NCBI GenBank assembly: GCA_903835075.1
Contig: CAILLM010000008.1
Coordinates: 25,498 to 89,497, forward strand
Direction: 5' to 3'
DNA: 64,000 bases
From: Candidatus Staskawiczbacteria bacterium
GTDB lineage: Bacteria; Patescibacteriota; Minisyncoccia; Minisyncoccales; Staskawiczbacteraceae
In this document: positions 3,507 to 16,478 of the stretch, one piece after another
Numbering within the stretch: the stretch's first letter is position 1
Layout: each line of letters starts with the position of its first letter
Program-made: the position numbers and the translations under genes
Notes under the pieces: model-generated
Told to the model about the DNA's origin: nothing
The model's input: the letters and a program-made list of their open reading frames with translations, nothing else
Database searches by the model: none

Positions 3507-4814
3507 ATGGAAAGGTTTAAATTTATTACTCAAAAAAACTTTGACGAGCTCCCAAAAACATCGGGAGTTTATTGCCTTGCCTCGCCGAAGCTAAAGGGCG
3601 AAGGCGGGTTTGAGGTAATCTATATTGGCAAAGCTATAAACATAAAAAGCAGAGTTAAAAACCATTTTCAACAGCCAAGCTACCGCGACAATTTATTTAT
3701 TGATAAAGTTAGTAAAATTGGCTACTTGGAGACTAACTCAGAAATTGAAGCCTTAATTTTGGAAGCAAATTTAATTAAAAAATATCAACCCAAGTTCAAT
3801 GTTGTTTGGAAAGACGATAAAAACTATTTTTACGTAGCCATTACACAAGACAAATGCCCAATAGTTTACATTACTCACCAACCCTTCGGCTCCGCTCAGG
3901 GCAAGCCCAAACTACTCACTACAAACTACTCACTACAAACTAAGTATATTGGGCCGTTTGTTGAGGGGACTGCTCTAAAAAAGACTTTAAAATATTTAAG
4001 GCGAGCATTTCCATATTACACCAGCAAGAAGCACCCTAAAACAAAATGCACATGGTGCCATTTGGGACTATGCCCTGGGCCCCGCCTCTTCGAGGCGAGG
4101 CTCGACTCGCCCACTGGCGAGGCGGCAAACCTAAGAAAAGAATACAAAAATAATCTTAAAAAATTAGCCCTAATCTTGCAAGGAAAGCGAAGTGCCGTGC
4201 TTAATTCTCTAAAGCGAGAAATGGCACAATTCTCAAAAGAAAGTAAATTTGAAGAAGCCGGAAAAATCCGCGACCGAATTTATAATCTGCAACAAATTAT
4301 GGCCCACAGCATTGTCATTGAAAATTCCAAAGCCACTCAAGAATCTAATGTTGGAGATATTTTTGCAAAAGTTGAATGTTATGACATTTCAAACATACAA
4401 GGGAAATTTGCAACCGGCTCTATGGTAGTTTTTGTAAATGGAGAGTCAGACAAAAGCCAATACAAAAAATTCAAAATTCGCTTAATGGACACACCAAATG
4501 ACATTGCCATGTTAAGAGAAGTTTTGGAAAGAAGATTCAATCACCCAGAATGGAAATATCCTGAGGTAATTTTAATTGATGGCGGGAAAGCTCAATTAAA
4601 CATTGCCATAAAGGTTAAGAATAAACTGCCCATTAAAATTATTTCAATTGCAAAAGGCAGGCAAGAACTGTTTATTGAAGGCCAAAAAAATCCAATACCG
4701 CTAAAATTATTACCACAAAATATTTACAACTTAATTTTGCAATTAGACAGCGAAGCTCACCGCTTTGCAATCACATATCATAAAAAATTAAGAAAGAAAA
4801 ATTTATTGCAGTAA
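3507..4814 (+). CDS. uvrC: Excinuclease ABC subunit C (UvrC) homolog, short form lacking the C-terminal (HhH)2 domain
   Basis: GIY-YIG motif (GVYCL...VIYIGKAINIKSRVKNHF), Cys-rich region (KCTWCHLGLC), UVR-like helix (AGKIRDRIYNLQQI) and the RNase H-like UvrC endonuclease domain (ECYDISNIQGKFATGSMVVFVNG...YKKFKI). Ends at 435 aa. Carries GC-rich in-frame insertions (PFGSAQGKPK; CPGPRLFEARLDSPTGEAANL). Confidence 0.75.
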   Translation: MERFKFITQKNFDELPKTSGVYCLASPKLKGEGGFEVIYIGKAINIKSRVKNHFQQPSYRDNLFIDKVSKIGYLETNSEIEALILEANLIKKYQPKFNVVWKDDKNYFYVAITQDKCPIVYITHQPFGSAQGKPKLLTTNYSLQTKYIGPFVEGTALKKTLKYLRRAFPYYTSKKHPKTKCTWCHLGLCPGPRLFEARLDSPTGEAANLRKEYKNNLKKLALILQGKRSAVLNSLKREMAQFSKESKFEEAGKIRDRIYNLQQIMAHSIVIENSKATQESNVGDIFAKVECYDISNIQGKFATGSMVVFVNGESDKSQYKKFKIRLMDTPNDIAMLREVLERRFNHPEWKYPEVILIDGGKAQLNIAIKVKNKLPIKIISIAKGRQELFIEGQKNPIPLKLLPQNIYNLILQLDSEAHRFAITYHKKLRKKNLLQ

Positions 4815-5485: not shown

Positions 5486-7489
5486 ATGGCAAAGTCAAAG
5501 TTTCCTAAACTTTCTCAATGGAAACAACTTTTTAAAATATTGAAAAAACCCGAAAAAATCTTTTTTTTGATTTTTCTGGTGTTGTTTATTGCATCTGCAA
5601 CTTACCTTGTAGTTAATTTTTATATAAATAATACAAAAGCGGTCCCTGCATTTGGCGGAACATATACAGAAGGCGTTGTTGGTCAGCCAAGATTCATAAA
5701 TCCTATTTATGGAGAAACAAATGATGTTGATAGAACTTTAATAGACCTCACCTATTCCGGATTAATGACTTATGATAAAGATGGAAAACTTATAAATGAC
5801 CTAGTAAAAAACTATCAAATTTCCGACAATGGGAAAACCTATACCTTCCAATTAAAAGACAAACTTTACTGGCAAGATGGCTCTCCCCTTACCGTTGATG
5901 ATGTTATCTACACAATAAAAACAATTCAAAATTCCGACTATAAAAGTCCTTTAAGAGCAAATTGGTTAAACGTAGATGCCAAAAAAATTTCTGACATATC
6001 ATTTGCGTTGTCCTTGGGGTCACCTTACAACTCTTTTCTAGAAAACTGTACAATAAAAATAATCCCTCAACATATTTGGAAAAATATTTTGCCTGAAAAC
6101 TTTGCTCTTTCACCGCACAACCTACAACCAGTTGGCTCGGGGCCATATACTCTTTCTGATATACGAGAAAATAAAGACAGCTTTATAACCAACCTAGCGC
6201 TTTCCGTAAATCATAAATATTATAGTAAGCTGCCATATATATCAGAAATTAATTTCAGGTTTTTTGGTAATAAAAATGATTTAATTAGCGCAGCCAACCA
6301 AAAAACAATTGATGGGTTCCCTGTTTCAGACTTAGAAAATAATGAAGCTTTGGCGGAAAAAGATGTCCACCAAGGGTGGAATACAAATGAAAAATTCCAA
6401 GTTTATTCTTTCTCACTGCCAAGATATTTTGCAGTATTCTTCAACTTACAGAATTCTAGAATTTTGTCTGATGGCAACATCACGCAAGCACTTAATTATT
6501 CTGTTAACAAGCAAGAACTTGCCCAAAATGTATATAATAAATTTAAAATAAAAACACCTGTTGTTAATTCCCCTATTTTGCCAGATTATTTTGGCTATTC
6601 ACAACCAAAAACAACTTACGACTACAATGTAGACTCTGCAAACAAACTTTTGGATAAATCTGGATACAAAGATTCAGGAGCTGGGCAAAGGACAAAAGCA
6701 AACAACAAAAAACCAGCATTTCAGTTTACTGGCTACTTGTCTACAAAATCTAAAGGTAATGAAGTTATAGAGCTTCAAGGATGTCTTTCTAGGCTAGACA
6801 GCAGCTTTAAAACTCTTTTGCAAACAGACCCAAGTGGGAAATATGGCGCAGGGACAGAAGCGGCTGTAACGGCATTTCAAAAAAAATATTTGCCAGGAGT
6901 CCCAACCACAGGAGAAACAGGAACTGGCACAAGAAAAGCTCTAAACACAGCTTGTTTTATAGCTCAAAGTAGCTCTTTGCCCCTACAATTCACATTAACC
7001 ACAATCAACCAACCACAAATGGTTTACACTGCCAATCTTTTAAAAAATTATTGGCAAAAAGTTGGGGTGATAGTTACAATAAAAACCGTAGAGCTTTCAG
7101 AATTAAAAAATGTTATTAAAAATCGTGACTACGATGCCCTACTTTATGGTGAGGCCTTTGGAAGTATCCCTGATTTATATCCATTTTGGCATTCCACACA
7201 AATAAATGACCCAGGGCTGAATCTTTCTGAATATCAGAACACAAACGCTGACCAATTATTAAAAGATGCCCGGGAAACGCTGGACAACAATGTGAAAGCT
7301 CAGAAATATGGAATTCTACAAGACACAATACTTTCGGGCTCTCCTGCACTCTTCTTATACAACCCCGACTATCTCTACTGGGCCTCACAAAAAGTGAAAG
7401 GAATTGATACAATTAAAATAGCTGACCCAGCTAAAAGATTTGAAAATATTCAAAATTGGTATATTAACACACATAGAACATGGAAATAA
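5486..7489 (+). CDS. ABC-transporter substrate-binding protein, family 5 (oligopeptide/nickel OppA/DppA-like), N-terminal membrane anchor, with an inserted putative peptidoglycan-binding segment
   Basis: SBP_bac_5-type N-terminal region (GGTYTEGVVGQPRFINPIY...LTYSGLMTYDKDGKL...YTFQLKDKLYWQDGSPLTVDDV). Internal GKYGAGTEAAVTAFQKKYLPGVPTTGETGTGTRKALN resembles PG_binding_1. Confidence 0.7.
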   Translation: MAKSKFPKLSQWKQLFKILKKPEKIFFLIFLVLFIASATYLVVNFYINNTKAVPAFGGTYTEGVVGQPRFINPIYGETNDVDRTLIDLTYSGLMTYDKDGKLINDLVKNYQISDNGKTYTFQLKDKLYWQDGSPLTVDDVIYTIKTIQNSDYKSPLRANWLNVDAKKISDISFALSLGSPYNSFLENCTIKIIPQHIWKNILPENFALSPHNLQPVGSGPYTLSDIRENKDSFITNLALSVNHKYYSKLPYISEINFRFFGNKNDLISAANQKTIDGFPVSDLENNEALAEKDVHQGWNTNEKFQVYSFSLPRYFAVFFNLQNSRILSDGNITQALNYSVNKQELAQNVYNKFKIKTPVVNSPILPDYFGYSQPKTTYDYNVDSANKLLDKSGYKDSGAGQRTKANNKKPAFQFTGYLSTKSKGNEVIELQGCLSRLDSSFKTLLQTDPSGKYGAGTEAAVTAFQKKYLPGVPTTGETGTGTRKALNTACFIAQSSSLPLQFTLTTINQPQMVYTANLLKNYWQKVGVIVTIKTVELSELKNVIKNRDYDALLYGEAFGSIPDLYPFWHSTQINDPGLNLSEYQNTNADQLLKDARETLDNNVKAQKYGILQDTILSGSPALFLYNPDYLYWASQKVKGIDTIKIADPAKRFENIQNWYINTHRTWK

Positions 7490-11596: not shown

Positions 11597-12924
11597 TATT
11601 TTTTAATCAATTTAGTTAGTTCTTTTATTTTTTGATCTAAAAGTTTTTGCGTGTCAGCCTCAATTGTTAGACGCAACAAGGGCTCAGTATTGGACGGTCG
11701 GGCATTAAACCACCAATCTTCATATCTAACGGTTATGCCGTCTATAAAATCTTGCGACACATCTGAATATTTTTTCTTAATTTTTTCCAAAATAGCTGTT
11801 TTATCGTTAACCGTAAAATTTATTTCGGGCGTTTTGAAATACTTATAAAAAGGTTTCACTATTTCTGAAAGTGGCTGATTGTAAGCAGACAATAATTGAA
11901 GTAAAATTACAAAAGCGATAAATCCGGAATCAGAATAGCCATTGTCGCGAAAACAATAATGCGAAGACAGTTCTCCACCCATGATACTCCCATGCTCACG
12001 CATTAAAGTAGAAATAAATATATATCCAACCCTAGAAGCAATCGCCTCTCCGCCCCATTTTTTGACCATTTCAGGCACTATTTTTGAACACACAACATTG
12101 TAAACAATGCTAGCACCAGGTTCTCTTTCTATAAATAATTTTGCGAGCAAGAGCAATGTTATGTCCGCAGGTATTACAACTCCCCTTTCATCTATAAAAA
12201 TTAGCCTATCAGTGTCTCCATCAAAAATAACACCAAAATCAGCCTTTTCTTTTACGATGGTTTCACAGATTTCTTTTTGTGACTCTGGCAACAACGGGTT
12301 AGAAGGATGAGCAGGAAAATGACCGTCCAATTTAAAATTCAAAGACACTATATTTAACGGCAATCCTTCTGTTAAAATAGGGATTATCTTACCCGCCATG
12401 CCATTACCCGCATCTACCACAACCTTAAATGGTTTTATTTTATCAACGTTGATGAAACTTAAAATATGACTTATAAAGCCCGGCATGATATTCTCTTCTC
12501 TGACCTCACCCTTAACATCGCTAATTTTTTCTGATAAATTTGTTACCTCTTCCAGCATTCCTGATACCACTACCCATTTCATATTTTTTAAAACCATTTT
12601 AAAACCGTTGTAATCAGAAGGATTATGTGAAGCAGTCACCATAATTCCCGCTTCATCTCCCAATTTATTCACGCAAAAATAAACAGCATCAATTGGCACC
12701 AATCCAATATCTTTTACATTTACGCCTTCATCGGTAATGCCATTAATTAGTGCACTTTTAAGCACTGAGCCGGAAAGCCTCATGTCCGAACCCACTGTTA
12801 TTTTTTTAGCCTTAGAATGTTTGGCAAAAGCACGCCCAATCAAATAGGCCGAATTTTCATCAAGCTCAGATGGATATATGCCACGGATATCGTAAGACTT
12901 AAATATGTTATAATTAATTTCCAT
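11596..12924 (-). CDS. Phosphoglucomutase/phosphomannomutase (alpha-D-phosphohexomutase family)
   Basis: Active-site loop TASHNP, SYDIRGIYP N-terminus, four-domain length (442 aa). Confidence 0.8.
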   Translation of the reverse strand: MEINYNIFKSYDIRGIYPSELDENSAYLIGRAFAKHSKAKKITVGSDMRLSGSVLKSALINGITDEGVNVKDIGLVPIDAVYFCVNKLGDEAGIMVTASHNPSDYNGFKMVLKNMKWVVVSGMLEEVTNLSEKISDVKGEVREENIMPGFISHILSFINVDKIKPFKVVVDAGNGMAGKIIPILTEGLPLNIVSLNFKLDGHFPAHPSNPLLPESQKEICETIVKEKADFGVIFDGDTDRLIFIDERGVVIPADITLLLLAKLFIEREPGASIVYNVVCSKIVPEMVKKWGGEAIASRVGYIFISTLMREHGSIMGGELSSHYCFRDNGYSDSGFIAFVILLQLLSAYNQPLSEIVKPFYKYFKTPEINFTVNDKTAILEKIKKKYSDVSQDFIDGITVRYEDWWFNARPSNTEPLLRLTIEADTQKLLDQKIKELTKLIKK

Positions 12925-12979
12925 TTTATTTATTCATATATTATACATAAATAATAATCTAAAATCCAGCAAACAGGGG

Positions 12980-13018
12980 TTGATTTTATAGACATCTTCT
13001 GTTATAATGCGGTATAAT
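12980..13018 (+). promoter_or_regulatory. Putative sigma70 promoter of the rpsF-ssb-rpsR operon (TTGATT-N18-TATAAT, second TATAAT 9 nt downstream)
   Basis: TTGATTttatagacatcttctgtTATAATgcggTATAAT read directly. Confidence 0.5.
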
Positions 13019-13102
13019 AAATTAAATGGAATGTGATCTTCCATGCGTCTGCGTGCAGACGTCTTGAAGCTAAAACTTCAGGATTTCATGTTCTACAAAC
13101 AA
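13019..13102 (+). promoter_or_regulatory. Structured 5' leader of rpsF (two hairpins: CGTCTG..CAGACG and CTGAAG..CTTCAG); candidate S6:S18 autoregulatory leader
   Basis: Two inverted repeats sit between the promoter and the ATG at 13103. A conserved rpsF leader bound by the S6:S18 complex is known in many bacteria. Confidence 0.3.
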
Positions 13103-13618
13103 ATGAAAACATACGAATTAGCGTATATAATTTCTCCGGAAATAACATCCGAAGAAGCCACAGCCAAGGCACAAGAAATAGAATCTGCTATACAAAGCAG
13201 AGAAGGAACAATTGTAAAACAACAAAATCCTGTTGCTAGAACTCTTTCCTATCAAATAGAAAAAAGAGCTTCAGGATATTTTGGAGTTATAGAATTTCAA
13301 TTAGAGCCTGAAAAATTATTAGAAGTAAAAGACATTGTTGCCAAAGATAAAAAAATTGTGAGACATATGCTTGTGATAAAAGAAGCTGCTGAGTTTAAAA
13401 AAGCAAGAAGAACTCGCGAAACTCCAAAAGTAAAAGTAGAAGCCGAAGAACTTTCTGTTTTTTCAACAACGCCTCTTACGGACGAGACAAAAGTAGAAGT
13501 TGAAACTCCAAAAGTAGAAGAAGAGGAAGCAGAAGACTCACCTACCAAAAAAGAAGCTAAAGAAAAAGTTGAATTAAAAGATATTGAACACGAATTAGAC
13601 GAAATATTAGGAGAATAA
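13103..13618 (+). CDS. rpsF: 30S ribosomal protein S6 with acidic/lysine-rich C-terminal extension
   Basis: MKTYELAYIISPE...S6 fold consensus. The track start at 13043 adds 20 aa across the leader hairpin; the ATG at 13103 matches the canonical S6 N-terminus. Confidence 0.85.
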   Translation: MKTYELAYIISPEITSEEATAKAQEIESAIQSREGTIVKQQNPVARTLSYQIEKRASGYFGVIEFQLEPEKLLEVKDIVAKDKKIVRHMLVIKEAAEFKKARRTRETPKVKVEAEELSVFSTTPLTDETKVEVETPKVEEEEAEDSPTKKEAKEKVELKDIEHELDEILGE

Positions 13619-13636
13619 TTAATTTAATAAATTATT

Positions 13637-14182
13637 ATGAATCTAAATAAAGCATTCGTTCTTGGCAACGTCACCCGTGAACCAGAAGTAAAAAATTTGC
13701 CATCGGGGCAACAAGTAACAAACTTTAGCATTGCCACAAACAGATTTCACACTTCGGGATCTGGAGAAAAAAAACAAGAAGCAGAGTTTCATAATATTGT
13801 TTGCTTTGGCAAGTTAGCCGACATATCAGCAAGATATTTAACAAAGGGCGGACTAGTGTTAATAGAAGGAAGAATCCAAACAAGAAATTGGACAAACACC
13901 GCCGGGGCTAAACAATACAGAACAGAAATTATTGCCGAATCTTTGCAATTAGGGCCAAAAGGAGCGAGCATGACAACAGACAGCGGTAGTGGATATTCAA
14001 AAAAATCATATACCCCAAAATCCGAATCAGATGGGCAGGACTTACCACAAATGCCTTCTAATGAAATTCCTATCATTGAAGAAGATTATACTCCACCAGC
14101 AGATGACTCAGGAGACCACAAAACAGTTTCATTTGAAGATGATGCTGCAGATGAGATTGACGTTCGCGATATCCCCTTCTAG
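13637..14182 (+). CDS. ssb: Single-stranded DNA-binding protein
   Basis: OB-fold N-terminal domain (NKAFVLGNVTREPEV...FHNIVCFGKLAD...LVLIEGRIQTRNW), Gly/Ser-rich tail and the canonical acidic C-terminus ending DIPF. Confidence 0.9.
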   Translation: MNLNKAFVLGNVTREPEVKNLPSGQQVTNFSIATNRFHTSGSGEKKQEAEFHNIVCFGKLADISARYLTKGGLVLIEGRIQTRNWTNTAGAKQYRTEIIAESLQLGPKGASMTTDSGSGYSKKSYTPKSESDGQDLPQMPSNEIPIIEEDYTPPADDSGDHKTVSFEDDAADEIDVRDIPF

Positions 14183-14230
14183 AAATTTATCAGCCATATT
14201 AATCAACTTTTAAGTATTAGAGAATATTTT

Positions 14231-14923
14231 ATGTCTTCTAAAGCATACTACTTAAAAAATCGAGACGAAATATTGCGGAAAAAGAGGGCATATTATGAAA
14301 AAAATAAGCCCGTCCTAAAAGAAAAATTAAAACTTTCTGGTAAAAAATGGTACGCAAAGAATAAAGAAAATGTCCAAATATTACATAGGGAATATTACAA
14401 AAATAATATTGCAAAAGAATCTGAACGTCATAAAATAATCTATCTGAAAAATAAGGATAGTATATTAGAAAAAAGTAAAAAATATTATTTGGAAAATTTG
14501 GAAACTATTCGCCTTAGACATAAAAAATATAATAAAGACAATAAAGATAAACTATCTGATTACAAGGGCACGTGGCAAAAAATCAGGAGAAAAATAAACC
14601 CACGGTGGAAATTAGATGAGAATATGGGCAGGGCACTATGGTCATCATTAAAAAGTAAAAAAGCAGGTAAAAAATGGGAGCACTTTGTCGAATATAATCT
14701 AGATCAATTAATGCAACATTTAGAGGGAAAGTTTGACGAAAAAATGAATTGGGATAATTATGGAAGTTATTGGGCAGTTGACCATATAAAACCGAAAACC
14801 TTGTTTTTATACTTTTCTGAAAATGATTCAGAATTTAAACAATGTTGGGCATTAGAAAATTTACAACCATTAGAAAAAGTAGAAAACATTAAAAAAGGTA
14901 ATCGATATATAAGCAATAAATAA
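14231..14923 (+). CDS. HNH endonuclease-domain protein (homing-endonuclease-like) with an N-terminal Lys/Tyr-rich repeat region, inserted between ssb and rpsR
   Basis: C-terminal WAVDHIKP...ENLQPLEKVENIKKGN matches the HNH (HNH_3-type) His-Asn core. The N-terminus has repeated YY-KNK motifs. Markedly AT-rich even for this window. Confidence 0.6.
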   Translation: MSSKAYYLKNRDEILRKKRAYYEKNKPVLKEKLKLSGKKWYAKNKENVQILHREYYKNNIAKESERHKIIYLKNKDSILEKSKKYYLENLETIRLRHKKYNKDNKDKLSDYKGTWQKIRRKINPRWKLDENMGRALWSSLKSKKAGKKWEHFVEYNLDQLMQHLEGKFDEKMNWDNYGSYWAVDHIKPKTLFLYFSENDSEFKQCWALENLQPLEKVENIKKGNRYISNK

Positions 14924-14997
14924 AAAAATAAACAAGCGGAACAAGAAATATTTTCTGGCATAGCCAAAAAATATTTTCGCCCTCTGCTAAAAATAAA

Positions 14998-15192
14998 ATG
15001 TGTTACTTTTGTCAGAAAAATATTGATAGCGTAGATTTCAAAAATATAGAATTGTTATCAAAATTTATTTCAGGTTTTTATAAAATAAAACCAAGAAAAA
15101 AAACCAACCTTTGCATGTATCACCAAAAAAAGGTTGCCACAGCAGTAAAAAGAGCAAGACAATTAGGCTTACTCCCATTTACTCCAAAGTAA
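14998..15192 (+). CDS. rpsR: 30S ribosomal protein S18
   Basis: CYFCQKNIDSVDFKNIELLSKFIS...RARQLGLLPF matches the S18 consensus. Confidence 0.85.
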   Translation: MCYFCQKNIDSVDFKNIELLSKFISGFYKIKPRKKTNLCMYHQKKVATAVKRARQLGLLPFTPK

Positions 15193-15206
15193 GCAAACAA
15201 ATTAAA

Positions 15207-15236
15207 AACAGCCCTTCGCGGGGCTGTTTTTGTTTA
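15207..15236 (+). terminator. Rho-independent terminator after rpsR
   Basis: CAGCCCttcgcgGGGCTG followed by TTTTTGTTT. Confidence 0.7.
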
Positions 15237-15371
15237 GCGAGGTAGTGAATTCGTAGCGTACCCTGCAGGCAATTTTGCAAGGTTCGCCGAAGGCGAAAAA
15301 TTGCCGAAGCCTGAGTGAGTTGCACGCTGGCGCAACGAACGCTAGCGAAGAATTTACTGTCGAGCGATAAA
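15237..15371. repeat. GC-rich ~135-bp intergenic element with imperfect terminal inverted repeats (AGTGAATTCGTAGCG ... CGCTAGCGAAGAATTTACT), related to the dispersed GC-rich repeat family
   Basis: Abrupt GC rise. Ends are reverse-complement-similar. TGAATTCGTAG is also present at 57784 and a related form at 57255. The GCGAAGG/CGAAG cores resemble the elements at 16420-16480 and 59991-60028. Confidence 0.4.
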
Positions 15372-16478
15372 TTACTCTTTTGGCTTTAGTACTTCTTTTT
15401 TTTCTTCACTTGCTTTTAAAGCTGCTGTTCTGACCTCTTTAAATAAATCTTTATCTGCCTTCAAGGCATTTTTTGTTTGTTCTACGCCAACTCCAAGCTT
15501 TCTTTCGCCAAAAGAAAATGTATTACCTGTTTGTTTTATTACTCCATGTAGCAAAGCTACCCTCAAAACATCAGCAGATTTTGAAATACCCTCATTATAA
15601 TAAATATCAAATTCAGCTGTTTTAAAAGGCGCTGCAACTTTATTTTTTACAATTTTTGCTTTTACCCTGTTTCCAATAATTTCTTCACCAGCTTTTATTT
15701 GAGCAGTGCGGGCCAAGTTAATTCTTACTGAAGCGTAAAACTTTAAAGCCAATCCACCAGGAGTTGTTTCGGGATTTCCAAAAACCATTCCAATTTTCAT
15801 TCTGGTTTGGTTTAAGAATATAACCATTGTGTTTGTTTTAGACATTATGGCAGAAAGCTTTCTACAGGCTTGCGACATAAGCCTTGCCTGCAAACCCATG
15901 TGCTGATCTCCAATTTCACCTTCAATTTCTCTTTGTGGAGTTAAAGCAGCAACTGAGTCAACAACAATAACGTCAATTGTGCCTGTTTTTACCAAAGTTT
16001 CCACAATTTGAAGTGCTTGCTCGCCACTATCTGGTTGCGAAATTAAAAGGTTATCCACGTCCACTCCAATGCGTCCGGCATAGTCGGGGTCCATTGCATG
16101 CTCTGCGTCAACAAAAGCACATGTACCGCCCTTTTTTTGCGCTTCAGCTATCACGTGAAGTGACAAAGTGGTCTTACCAGAAGACTCAGCCCCATATATT
16201 TCTATAATTCTTCCTCGAGGCATTCCACCAACGCCCAATGCCAAATCCATGGCAATTGAGCCTGTCGGTACAACATCAACATCAACCGCATGAATTTCGC
16301 GCATTTTCATAATTGCGCCCTCTCCAAAGCGCTCCTTAATTTCATCTAACGCACTATTTAATGCCTTGTTCTCTCCCGGCGCTGTAACTTTTTTTTCTTT
16401 TTTAGTATCTTTTGCCACGGTCTTGTGAGCGAGGCGAACAAGGTTGCTTCGGTCCCGCTGAGCGGGAACGCTGAACAC
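15372..16478 (-). CDS. recA: Recombinase RecA
   Basis: Walker A GAESSGKTT, the L1/L2 loop region and the full RecA core. The track start at 16478 is a GTG whose first 20 aa are encoded by a GC-rich repeat; the canonical N-terminus VAKDTKKEKK... begins at another GTG at 16418. Confidence 0.9.
   Translation of the reverse strand: MFSVPAQRDRSNLVRLAHKTVAKDTKKEKKVTAPGENKALNSALDEIKERFGEGAIMKMREIHAVDVDVVPTGSIAMDLALGVGGMPRGRIIEIYGAESSGKTTLSLHVIAEAQKKGGTCAFVDAEHAMDPDYAGRIGVDVDNLLISQPDSGEQALQIVETLVKTGTIDVIVVDSVAALTPQREIEGEIGDQHMGLQARLMSQACRKLSAIMSKTNTMVIFLNQTRMKIGMVFGNPETTPGGLALKFYASVRINLARTAQIKAGEEIIGNRVKAKIVKNKVAAPFKTAEFDIYYNEGISKSADVLRVALLHGVIKQTGNTFSFGERKLGVGVEQTKNALKADKDLFKEVRTAALKASEEKKEVLKPKE

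Follow-up and report, generated by a model that had tools for sequence, protein, structure and literature searches.

Phages and organelles are well-known carriers of free-standing homing endonuclease genes. To our knowledge, such genes have rarely been reported in bacterial chromosomes outside introns and inteins. Described systems of the HNH type include the free-standing homing endonucleases of T4-like phages, such as MobE (PMC2790892, PMC2988022). We analysed a stretch of 64,000 nucleotides from a Candidatus Staskawiczbacteria bacterium (contig CAILLM010000008.1, positions 25,498 to 89,497), hereafter called the window, in which an open reading frame (ORF) for a 230-residue HNH-like endonuclease, hereafter called X, lies on the plus strand between ssb and rpsR (14231-14923, ATG start). 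A sequence-only reading had described this ORF and its motifs WAVDHIKP, ENLQPL and NIKKGN, and both are present as described. As in T4-type systems, X is a stand-alone ORF, associated with neither an intron nor an intein, located in a gap between conserved genes, and it likewise lacks terminal repeats and any further mobility gene. X is also patchily distributed among relatives, intact empty sites exist, and the active site is of the HNH type. T4-type enzymes have their target within a conserved gene next to their own, and we propose that X has a target of this kind. We think that X is probably a free-standing, HNH-type homing-endonuclease-like selfish gene. A full-text search of the literature did not reveal any endonuclease gene described from the rpsF-ssb-rpsR operon.

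Because the site is empty in almost all close relatives, X is most likely a selfish gene and not a regular member of the operon. Relatives were sampled without bias through ribosomal protein S18, the rpsR product. The best 80 loci, in which S18 is 69-95% identical, share the gene order trpS-pgm-rpsF-ssb-rpsR-recA-ftsK, and 73 of them extend far enough upstream to be informative. In 71 of these 73 loci ssb is directly followed by rpsR, separated by spacers of 1-181 nt, and only two carry X. The assumption that rpsF, ssb and rpsR are normally contiguous thus holds in this lineage. The sequence-only reading had also proposed a comparison of the locus in sister genomes; the orthologue is not carried by all of them, and the site is intact and empty in the 71 relatives just mentioned. 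Empty sites are found even in the window's closest relatives, L100 (S18 95%, RecA 89%, TrpS 93% and FtsK 91% identity) and L101 (S18 95%, RecA 85% and TrpS 90%). In a deeper clade, the members known before S18 sampling all had X, and all five S18 variants picked regardless of X are empty. As X is absent from 71 of 73 relatives and from five of five deeper lineages, it is not a core member of the rpsF-ssb-rpsR operon.

Searches with X itself as the query had led to a different conclusion. Every orthologue with at least 50% identity is found in the ssb-rpsR slot, namely P0002 (73%), P0026 (56%), P0058 (55%) and those of 11 GTDB species representatives, and RecA identity of the hosts to the window falls to 62%. 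Relatives in this group of Patescibacteria are labelled Staskawiczbacteria, Nealsonbacteria or Paceibacterales. From this sample X was first taken for an old resident gene, a conclusion overturned by the S18-sampled empty sites. Sampling with X was biased, because only X-carrying genomes can be found in this way; the lesson is that gene-only queries gave a false picture of universal conservation. A further suggestion of the sequence-only reading, that X is a nuclease domesticated for work at replication forks, is not supported, because the gene is missing in about 97% of close relatives and is not a core SSB partner.

X-carrying loci are scattered among X-less ones. In a neighbour-joining tree of RecA from 62 loci, which is rough and has no support values, the nearest neighbour lacks X for 10 of the 13 X-carrying loci. 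At least nine parsimony changes (Fitch) are required for X on the RecA tree, and a history of losses alone would require at least 17. Losses on this scale would have to be accepted if X were an old resident accessory gene, inserted once in an ancestor, vertically inherited and often lost, with a useful function in the cell, for instance as a nuclease for DNA repair or recombination that is produced together with SSB from a locus next to recA. We consider this history, and with it such a function, unlikely. It would account for the identical slot of all operon-type copies over the entire range of RecA divergence, but the absence of X from about 97% of the unbiased relatives is hard to square with a useful SSB partner.

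The structure of the insertion is also consistent with a selfish cassette. The insert, about 741 bp in length, comprises a 48-nt leader (14183-14230, plus strand) and the 693-nt ORF, and is placed 0-3 nt past the ssb stop codon, inside the rpsF-ssb-rpsR transcription unit. The leader, which features Shine-Dalgarno-like AGAGAA/AAGGAA motifs 8-12 nt ahead of the ATG of X, is conserved across X-carrying loci and absent from empty sites, as revealed by alignment, and has no match in empty spacers. Downstream of X, the right junction is formed by the original ssb-rpsR spacer (14924-14997, plus strand). This segment is homologous to the whole ssb-rpsR spacer of L100 and L101, and the homologous stretch starts right at the stop codon of X (blastn with L101: 94% over 35 nt and 19/19 nt; with L100: 17/17 and 20/21). 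Because the complete empty-site spacer is retained downstream of X, the insert consists of leader and ORF alone. Neither terminal repeats nor a target duplication, an integrase, a transposase or any other mobility gene were found in the insert, and blastn detected no remnants of X in empty-site spacers. Under vertical descent, each loss would thus have to be precise, restoring a clean ssb-rpsR spacer without remnant. Empty sites, scattered X-carrying loci and a bare cassette together support the view, already put forward in the sequence-only reading, of a free-standing homing endonuclease that invaded the operon.

The ssb-rpsR spacer is a variable region in its own right. Empty spacers of 129-157 nt in L110, L114 and L154 contain short repeats of the AAATTTGAAATTT type and small hairpins. 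Given these repeat- and hairpin-filled spacers, and lengths of 1-181 nt, the spacer itself is highly variable among relatives.

Several independent assemblies of the window's species (L003, L190 and two ENA contigs) break inside X, possibly owing to internal repeats or to strain heterogeneity at the site. Breaks inside or at X are what one would expect if the insert were an assembly or binning artefact, such as a chimera with phage read-through. This is extremely improbable: 12 contigs of the window's species, assembled independently in ENA, NCBI and Logan, have X in the identical arrangement, at least 13 other lineages from separate projects share it, and both junctions run on into host sequence without interruption.

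Sequence differences between occupied and empty alleles are concentrated at the very end of ssb. The ssb gene (single-stranded DNA-binding protein; 13637-14182, plus strand; Pfam SSB E 2e-33, TIGR00621 E 1e-38) encodes a C-terminus ending in ...DEIDVRDIPF. Its last 36 nt (14147-14182, plus strand) form the left junction, with the codons CGC GAT (R-D) at 14165-14170 and a TAG stop codon at 14180-14182. We compared 13 distinct X-carrying with 66 distinct X-less junctions. SSB residues -5/-4 are K-D in none of the 13 X-carrying junctions vs 55 of the 66 X-less ones (Fisher p 9.5e-9, kinship ignored). All four separately nested X-carrying lineages of clade A have CGC GAY, a Lys codon AAA being three substitutions away from CGC, while their X-less neighbours mostly have AAA GAY. 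R-D is encoded in just four of the 66 X-less junctions, one of which reads CGC GAT. As for the stop codon of ssb, 10 of 13 X-carrying loci use TGA or TAG, and 68 of 72 X-less loci use TAA. The last 36 nt of ssb show 43/144 differences between X-carrying loci and their nearest X-less relatives vs 40/216 among X-less neighbours. Some ungapped comparisons over ssb are spoiled by one-codon indels (values of about 0.5), and only the tail figures are used here. A long co-conversion tract or a chimeric ssb was considered and rejected, neither being seen; the 5' end of rpsR shows no excess divergence. The flank data could reflect co-conversion of a short flank, a target variant immune to cleavage, or the two combined, but prove neither, and the last 36 nt of ssb are a candidate for the recognition site or the co-converted flank. 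Vertical descent, in contrast, would oblige every clade-A loss also to revert CGC GAY to AAA GAY and TAG to TAA.

The same flank bears on the possibility that X is an accessory or defence nuclease that is exchanged passively, hitch-hiking by homologous recombination through conserved flanks under fluctuating selection, for instance by phages. We judge this to be quite unlikely. The patchy distribution would be explained, conserved ssb and rpsR/recA sequences could serve as recombination arms, and HNH/GmrSD_C nucleases do occur in defence systems, a GmrSD_C-named protein being among the fold matches of X. However, ordinary recombination would import longer arms than the changes seen within the last ~18 nt of ssb. 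X is furthermore a single gene without partner genes and matches no PADLOC defence model at E ≤ 1, it occupies the same nucleotide-level position in every carrier rather than a variable island, and its homologues are themselves abundant in phage genomes. A homing gene remains our preferred explanation for a cassette of this type.

X is old within the bacterial group: its copies are 50-77% identical across the group, indicating that X has long persisted at one site instead of having arrived recently from outside. The reading frame is uninterrupted in 12 of 13 lineages, and the ratio of nonsynonymous to synonymous substitution rates (dN/dS) ranges from 0.06 to 0.29, denoting purifying selection, with dN similar to that of SSB and RecA. 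Both features also speak for a resident gene. In contrast, other features would be unexpected under pure vertical descent. In four of seven pairs, X has diverged less at synonymous sites than its flanks have. For instance, in the L008/L022/L023 and L012/L027 comparisons, X shows fewer synonymous differences than the pooled flanks, with example values of 0.21 vs 0.50 at fourfold sites (p 0.003) and 0.16 vs 0.33 at twofold sites (p 8e-4). Clade-A pairs are saturated at synonymous sites. GC content at third codon positions (GC3) is also lower in X than in its neighbours in GC-richer hosts: 0.38 vs 0.50-0.72 in L024 and 0.28 vs 0.41-0.45 in L020, as well as 0.21 vs 0.29-0.41 in L027 (X ORFs at about 4001-4670 in these loci). 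If X copies are younger than the genomes that carry them, both signals would be expected, and we take them as hints of lateral movement.

In the window itself, base composition is no sign of foreign origin. The sequence-only reading had pointed to the AT-richness of X, and this part stands: GC content is 0.281 vs a window mean of 0.356, within the lowest 0.6% of 693-bp windows. Foreign origin, which we had considered on this basis, was rejected, since rpsR is equally AT-rich (0.287) and the GC3 of X (0.25) is like that of its neighbours (0.20-0.31). For the same reasons, the skew is attributed to amino acid composition.

One X copy may be decaying. In L029 (about 3990-4470), the usual start of X (MVYKDKEKE...) is out of frame with the rest, leaving an ORF of 152 residues. 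A homologue of the same length, P0072, which may correspond to the L029 copy, is present on 18 contigs. As this 152-residue form has been seen on so many contigs, the frameshift is probably real.

X is composed of an N-terminal helical array and a C-terminal nuclease domain. Residues 5-104 comprise seven repeat units, each 14-19 residues long and following the pattern [YW]-Y-x-[KE]-N; the units coincide with predicted helices H11-24 to H105-122 and are rich in Lys, Tyr and Asn. An AlphaFold (AF2) model built with an alignment of 120 homologues (mean predicted local distance difference test score, pLDDT, 93.8) features nine helices in residues 3-139, seven of which match the ~15-residue repeats. 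The repeat array as a whole (residues 3-122, 14237-14596, plus strand) spans helices H3-9 to H105-122, with pLDDT values of 96-98. The Lys/Tyr-rich tandem repeat noted in the sequence-only reading is therefore confirmed as seven helical units in the protein, but no tandem repeat was found in the DNA of this region. Matches in PHROG (phrog_17714, 36724 and 7091) fall on the N-terminal part. No Pfam match to the DNA-binding modules of known homing endonucleases (NUMOD, AP2, IENR1) was found in X, and the helical array presumably takes their role as the DNA-binding module.

The C-terminal domain (residues 123-230, 14597-14920, plus strand) corresponds to a conserved block starting around residue 115. 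In the AF2 model, it contains a beta-beta-alpha core made of two strands (181-185 and 211-215) and a helix (216-222). The candidate active-site residues are D184-H185 in WAVDHIKP (14780-14785), N210 in ENLQPL (14858-14860) and N219 in NIKKGN (14885-14887), a pattern corresponding to the H-N-N variant of the HNH superfamily. By comparison with that superfamily, H185, at the end of the first strand and preceded by D184, would be the catalytic general base, N210 the structural Asn of the second strand and N219 the metal ligand in the helix. D184, N210 and N219 are invariant and H185 is at least 90% conserved in 120 homologues; D184-H185 are both invariant among 41 sequences. The profile check suggested in the sequence-only reading, against HNH_3 and AP2/NUMOD, failed to provide a match, in either Pfam or NCBIfam, at E ≤ 1. 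Since no curated model matches X, the HNH assignment rests on comparison of motifs and structures. A Pfam scan of the 120 homologues revealed only scattered weak HNH, GmrSD_C and HTH matches, PF01844 being matched by just three of them (best E 0.16). PDB sequence searches, with X as a single sequence or as a profile, gave nothing useful. Comparison of the model with predicted viral structures (Foldseek, BFVD) yielded 29 matches at E ≤ 1e-3, the best at 3e-11, with names including mimivirus L246, HNH endonuclease, HNHc domain, GmrSD_C and intron-encoded endonuclease; E values for the HNH, HNHc and GmrSD_C proteins run from 3e-11 to 3e-4. Motifs and the predicted structure lead us to place the C-terminal domain within the HNH superfamily, as a divergent H-N-N member.

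X belongs to an unannotated HNH-like (H-N-N) family that is common in phages and giant viruses. We found 717 homologues of X, and a search for the C-terminal domain over 1.84 billion cluster representatives retrieved 25,538 representatives at E ≤ 1e-3 and 7,824 at E ≤ 1e-10. The domain is nearly always C-terminal, in proteins of about 180-290 residues. Full-architecture homologues, 28-35% identical to X and covering 80-98% of it, are encoded by 116 phage genomes, where almost all are annotated as hypothetical. Repeat number differs between homologues, and some family members have a helix-turn-helix (HTH) or a zinc finger at the N-terminus in place of the repeats. Swappable N-terminal modules are typical of the way homing endonucleases are built.

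A phage-like contig, L015, represents the sister branch to X. The homologue in this contig has as its neighbour a Cys/His-rich protein (1706-2053), which is NinG-like as judged by eye only, and in Vibrio phage jenny 12G5 the homologue is preceded, ~0.4 kb upstream, by a gene annotated as the recombination gene NinG (L099, 2871-3428). These NinG-type neighbours indicate that the viral homologues sit in replication/recombination modules.

Cellular relatives outside the operon slot were also identified. A paralogous subfamily combines an HTH, a Cys4 zinc finger and few repeats with the same HNH-like C-terminal domain. Members at L030 3545-4414 (complete Nealsonbacteria genome CP179888.1) and L018 3001-3837 are both directly downstream of a gene for an extracytoplasmic function (ECF) sigma-70 factor, with which the gene in L030 overlaps; these may represent a second fixed insertion site or a functional pairing. 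In a Syntrophaceae metagenome-assembled genome (L067), a family member with 36% identity (4001-4444) lies ~1.5 kb upstream of rpsF/rpsR (5936-6681), which could be due to chance or be a second case of operon association.

A homing cycle can be proposed from these features. The terminator scan of the operon revealed no terminator-like element between ssb, X and rpsR; as the operon has no internal terminator, X is probably co-transcribed with it and would be expressed in this way. The protein would bind DNA via its seven-helix basic repeat array, and a putative beta-beta-alpha-metal site (D184/H185/N210/N219) would cut alleles lacking X at the 3' end of ssb or close to it. We infer that the target is this conserved 3' end, which encodes the essential acidic tail; the region cut would be the highly conserved stretch coding for ...D-V-K-D-I-P-F. 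Repair of the break on an X-carrying template would bring in the cassette and a few flanking nucleotides, with the ssb stop codon and the -5/-4 codons as the co-copied flank. The substitutions in X-carrying alleles (CGC GAY for AAA GAY, TAG/TGA for TAA) may protect against self-cleavage. X would then persist in this group of Patescibacteria by cycles of spread among relatives and loss, and such cycles would produce a patchy distribution at one fixed site.

The helical repeats are common to X and its phage and giant-virus homologues. One could further imagine that the seven 15-residue repeats are a modular DNA-reading array, in which repeat number and sequence set target length and specificity, and that X homes specifically into the DNA encoding the near-universal D-I-P-F-stop tail of SSB. 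We regard this extension as very doubtful. Were it true, a family of more than 25,000 clusters without a Pfam model would constitute unexplored repeat-guided site-specific nucleases of cells and viruses.

Several observations weigh against a homing gene. We infer every step of the cycle described above, cleavage, target and homing included. No polymorphism for X was seen within the window's species, all nine contigs of which (those with identical S18) carry the gene, in line with a resident gene. The X tree broadly tracks the host tree (Spearman 0.66 vs RecA identity), and X copies of clade A and clade B group separately. Such agreement would likewise be seen if X had been inherited vertically for a long time and lost many times. 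As for the low synonymous divergence and GC3 of X, a constraint towards AT-rich codons, instead of transfer, could account for both. Clade-B empty alleles also have S-Q or S-K at SSB -5/-4, so that the codon marker is informative in clade A only. Beyond ~18 nt, ssb shows no sign of a co-conversion tract, and rpsR shows none at all. With regard to the protein, no Pfam or NCBIfam family, HNH, AP2 and NUMOD models included, matches X at E ≤ 1. Cas9 HNH domains dominate the top of the Foldseek results against the PDB with weak E values of just 0.3-1, and hhalign places SYWAVDHIKPKTLF of X on SDYDVDHIVPQSF of Cas9 at P 9e-4 and a probability of 22%. We set these points against the empty sites, the bare cassette and the flank changes at the ssb end, and still regard a selfish homing gene as the probable explanation.

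The other elements of the operon are conventional. The sole strong promoter-like site revealed by the operon scan is located upstream of rpsF (12989-13018, plus strand). It is sigma-70-like (TAGACA-18-TATAAT), with 11 of 12 positions matching the consensus, and on this consensus match is presumed to be the operon promoter. The rpsF gene (ribosomal protein S6) is annotated at 13043-13618 on the plus strand (Pfam S6 E 4e-17; NCBIfam TIGR00166). As the Pfam S6 match starts only at residue 23, translation probably starts at 13106 (MKTYEL...) instead of 13043. The product features an acidic/lysine-rich C-terminal extension of ~80 residues past the S6 domain. The last gene, rpsR (14998-15192, plus strand), has clear matches to S18 (Pfam E 2e-21; TIGR00165 E 4e-22) and is followed on the opposite strand by recA and then ftsK. 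A GC-rich hairpin (15204-15231), the sole terminator-like one past the operon, lies between the convergent rpsR and recA genes. It was scored as an intrinsic terminator on the minus strand, and on the plus strand consists of a palindrome followed by TTTTTGTTT, which probably ends the rpsF-ssb-X-rpsR transcript. An Rfam scan of 12800-15500 returned nothing relevant, and no paralogues of X were found within the 64-kb window.

A 136-nt GC-rich, strongly structured segment (15236-15371) separates this hairpin from the recA stop codon. Its minimum free energy is -53.2 kcal/mol (z -4.7), and none of 200 shuffled sequences folds equally well. The segment is absent in relatives, the rpsR-recA spacer of L100 being just 49 bp; blastn of the region in other loci hit the terminator hairpin only, and the window contains no second copy. 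The segment may encode a small RNA or be another small insertion beside the same operon.

If the homing model is right, this locus is a clean natural system for studying how a selfish nuclease persists in the tiny genomes of Patescibacteria: the cassette is a single gene, the junction is defined, and alleles with and without X number in the dozens. Homing in Patescibacteria requires DNA exchange among hosts. The 3' end of ssb would furthermore be a concrete candidate target for an uncharacterised HNH-like family with 25,538 representatives.

Compared with known systems, X combines features of several nuclease groups. Its best PDB fold matches, which are weak, are Cas9 HNH domains (7mpz, 5vgb and others). 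Both share the pattern D-H-I-x-P-x-S/T-F ... N-x-x-x-L ... N-x-x-K, D184-H185 of X being aligned on D839-H840 of Cas9 (hhalign, probability 22%), and both are H-N-N variants without zinc-binding cysteines. Unlike Cas9, X has 25 additional residues, including a helix, inserted between the two strands, and it has neither an RNA guide nor a RuvC partner. Two members of the X family weakly match the GmrSD_C/DUF1524-type HNH domain (PF07510; best E 0.022), and a GmrSD_C-named BFVD protein matches X at E 1e-8. However, X itself gives no match to this domain at E ≤ 1 and has no GmrS/DUF262 partner domain. Mimivirus L246 and proteins of giant viruses and uncultured Caudovirales (BFVD Q5UPT5, A0A6J5L795, A0A2H4UUB1) feature both the X-like helical repeats and the C-terminal domain (Foldseek E 3e-11 to 1e-9, TM 0.6 over 155-197 columns); these proteins are viral, experimentally uncharacterised and mostly annotated as hypothetical.

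T4-type enzymes, with which we opened, differ from X in several respects. For X, cleavage and homing are predicted. It matches no curated HNH model, and a seven-helix Lys/Tyr/Asn array replaces the known binding modules. Whereas the T4-type enzymes come from phages, X is found in a Patescibacteria chromosome, inside a ribosomal-protein/ssb operon. To the free-standing HNH homing endonucleases already described, X would add a member in an unusual niche, a cellular ribosomal-protein operon of Patescibacteria, from a large family that has no Pfam model and whose helical-repeat N-terminus is unnamed.

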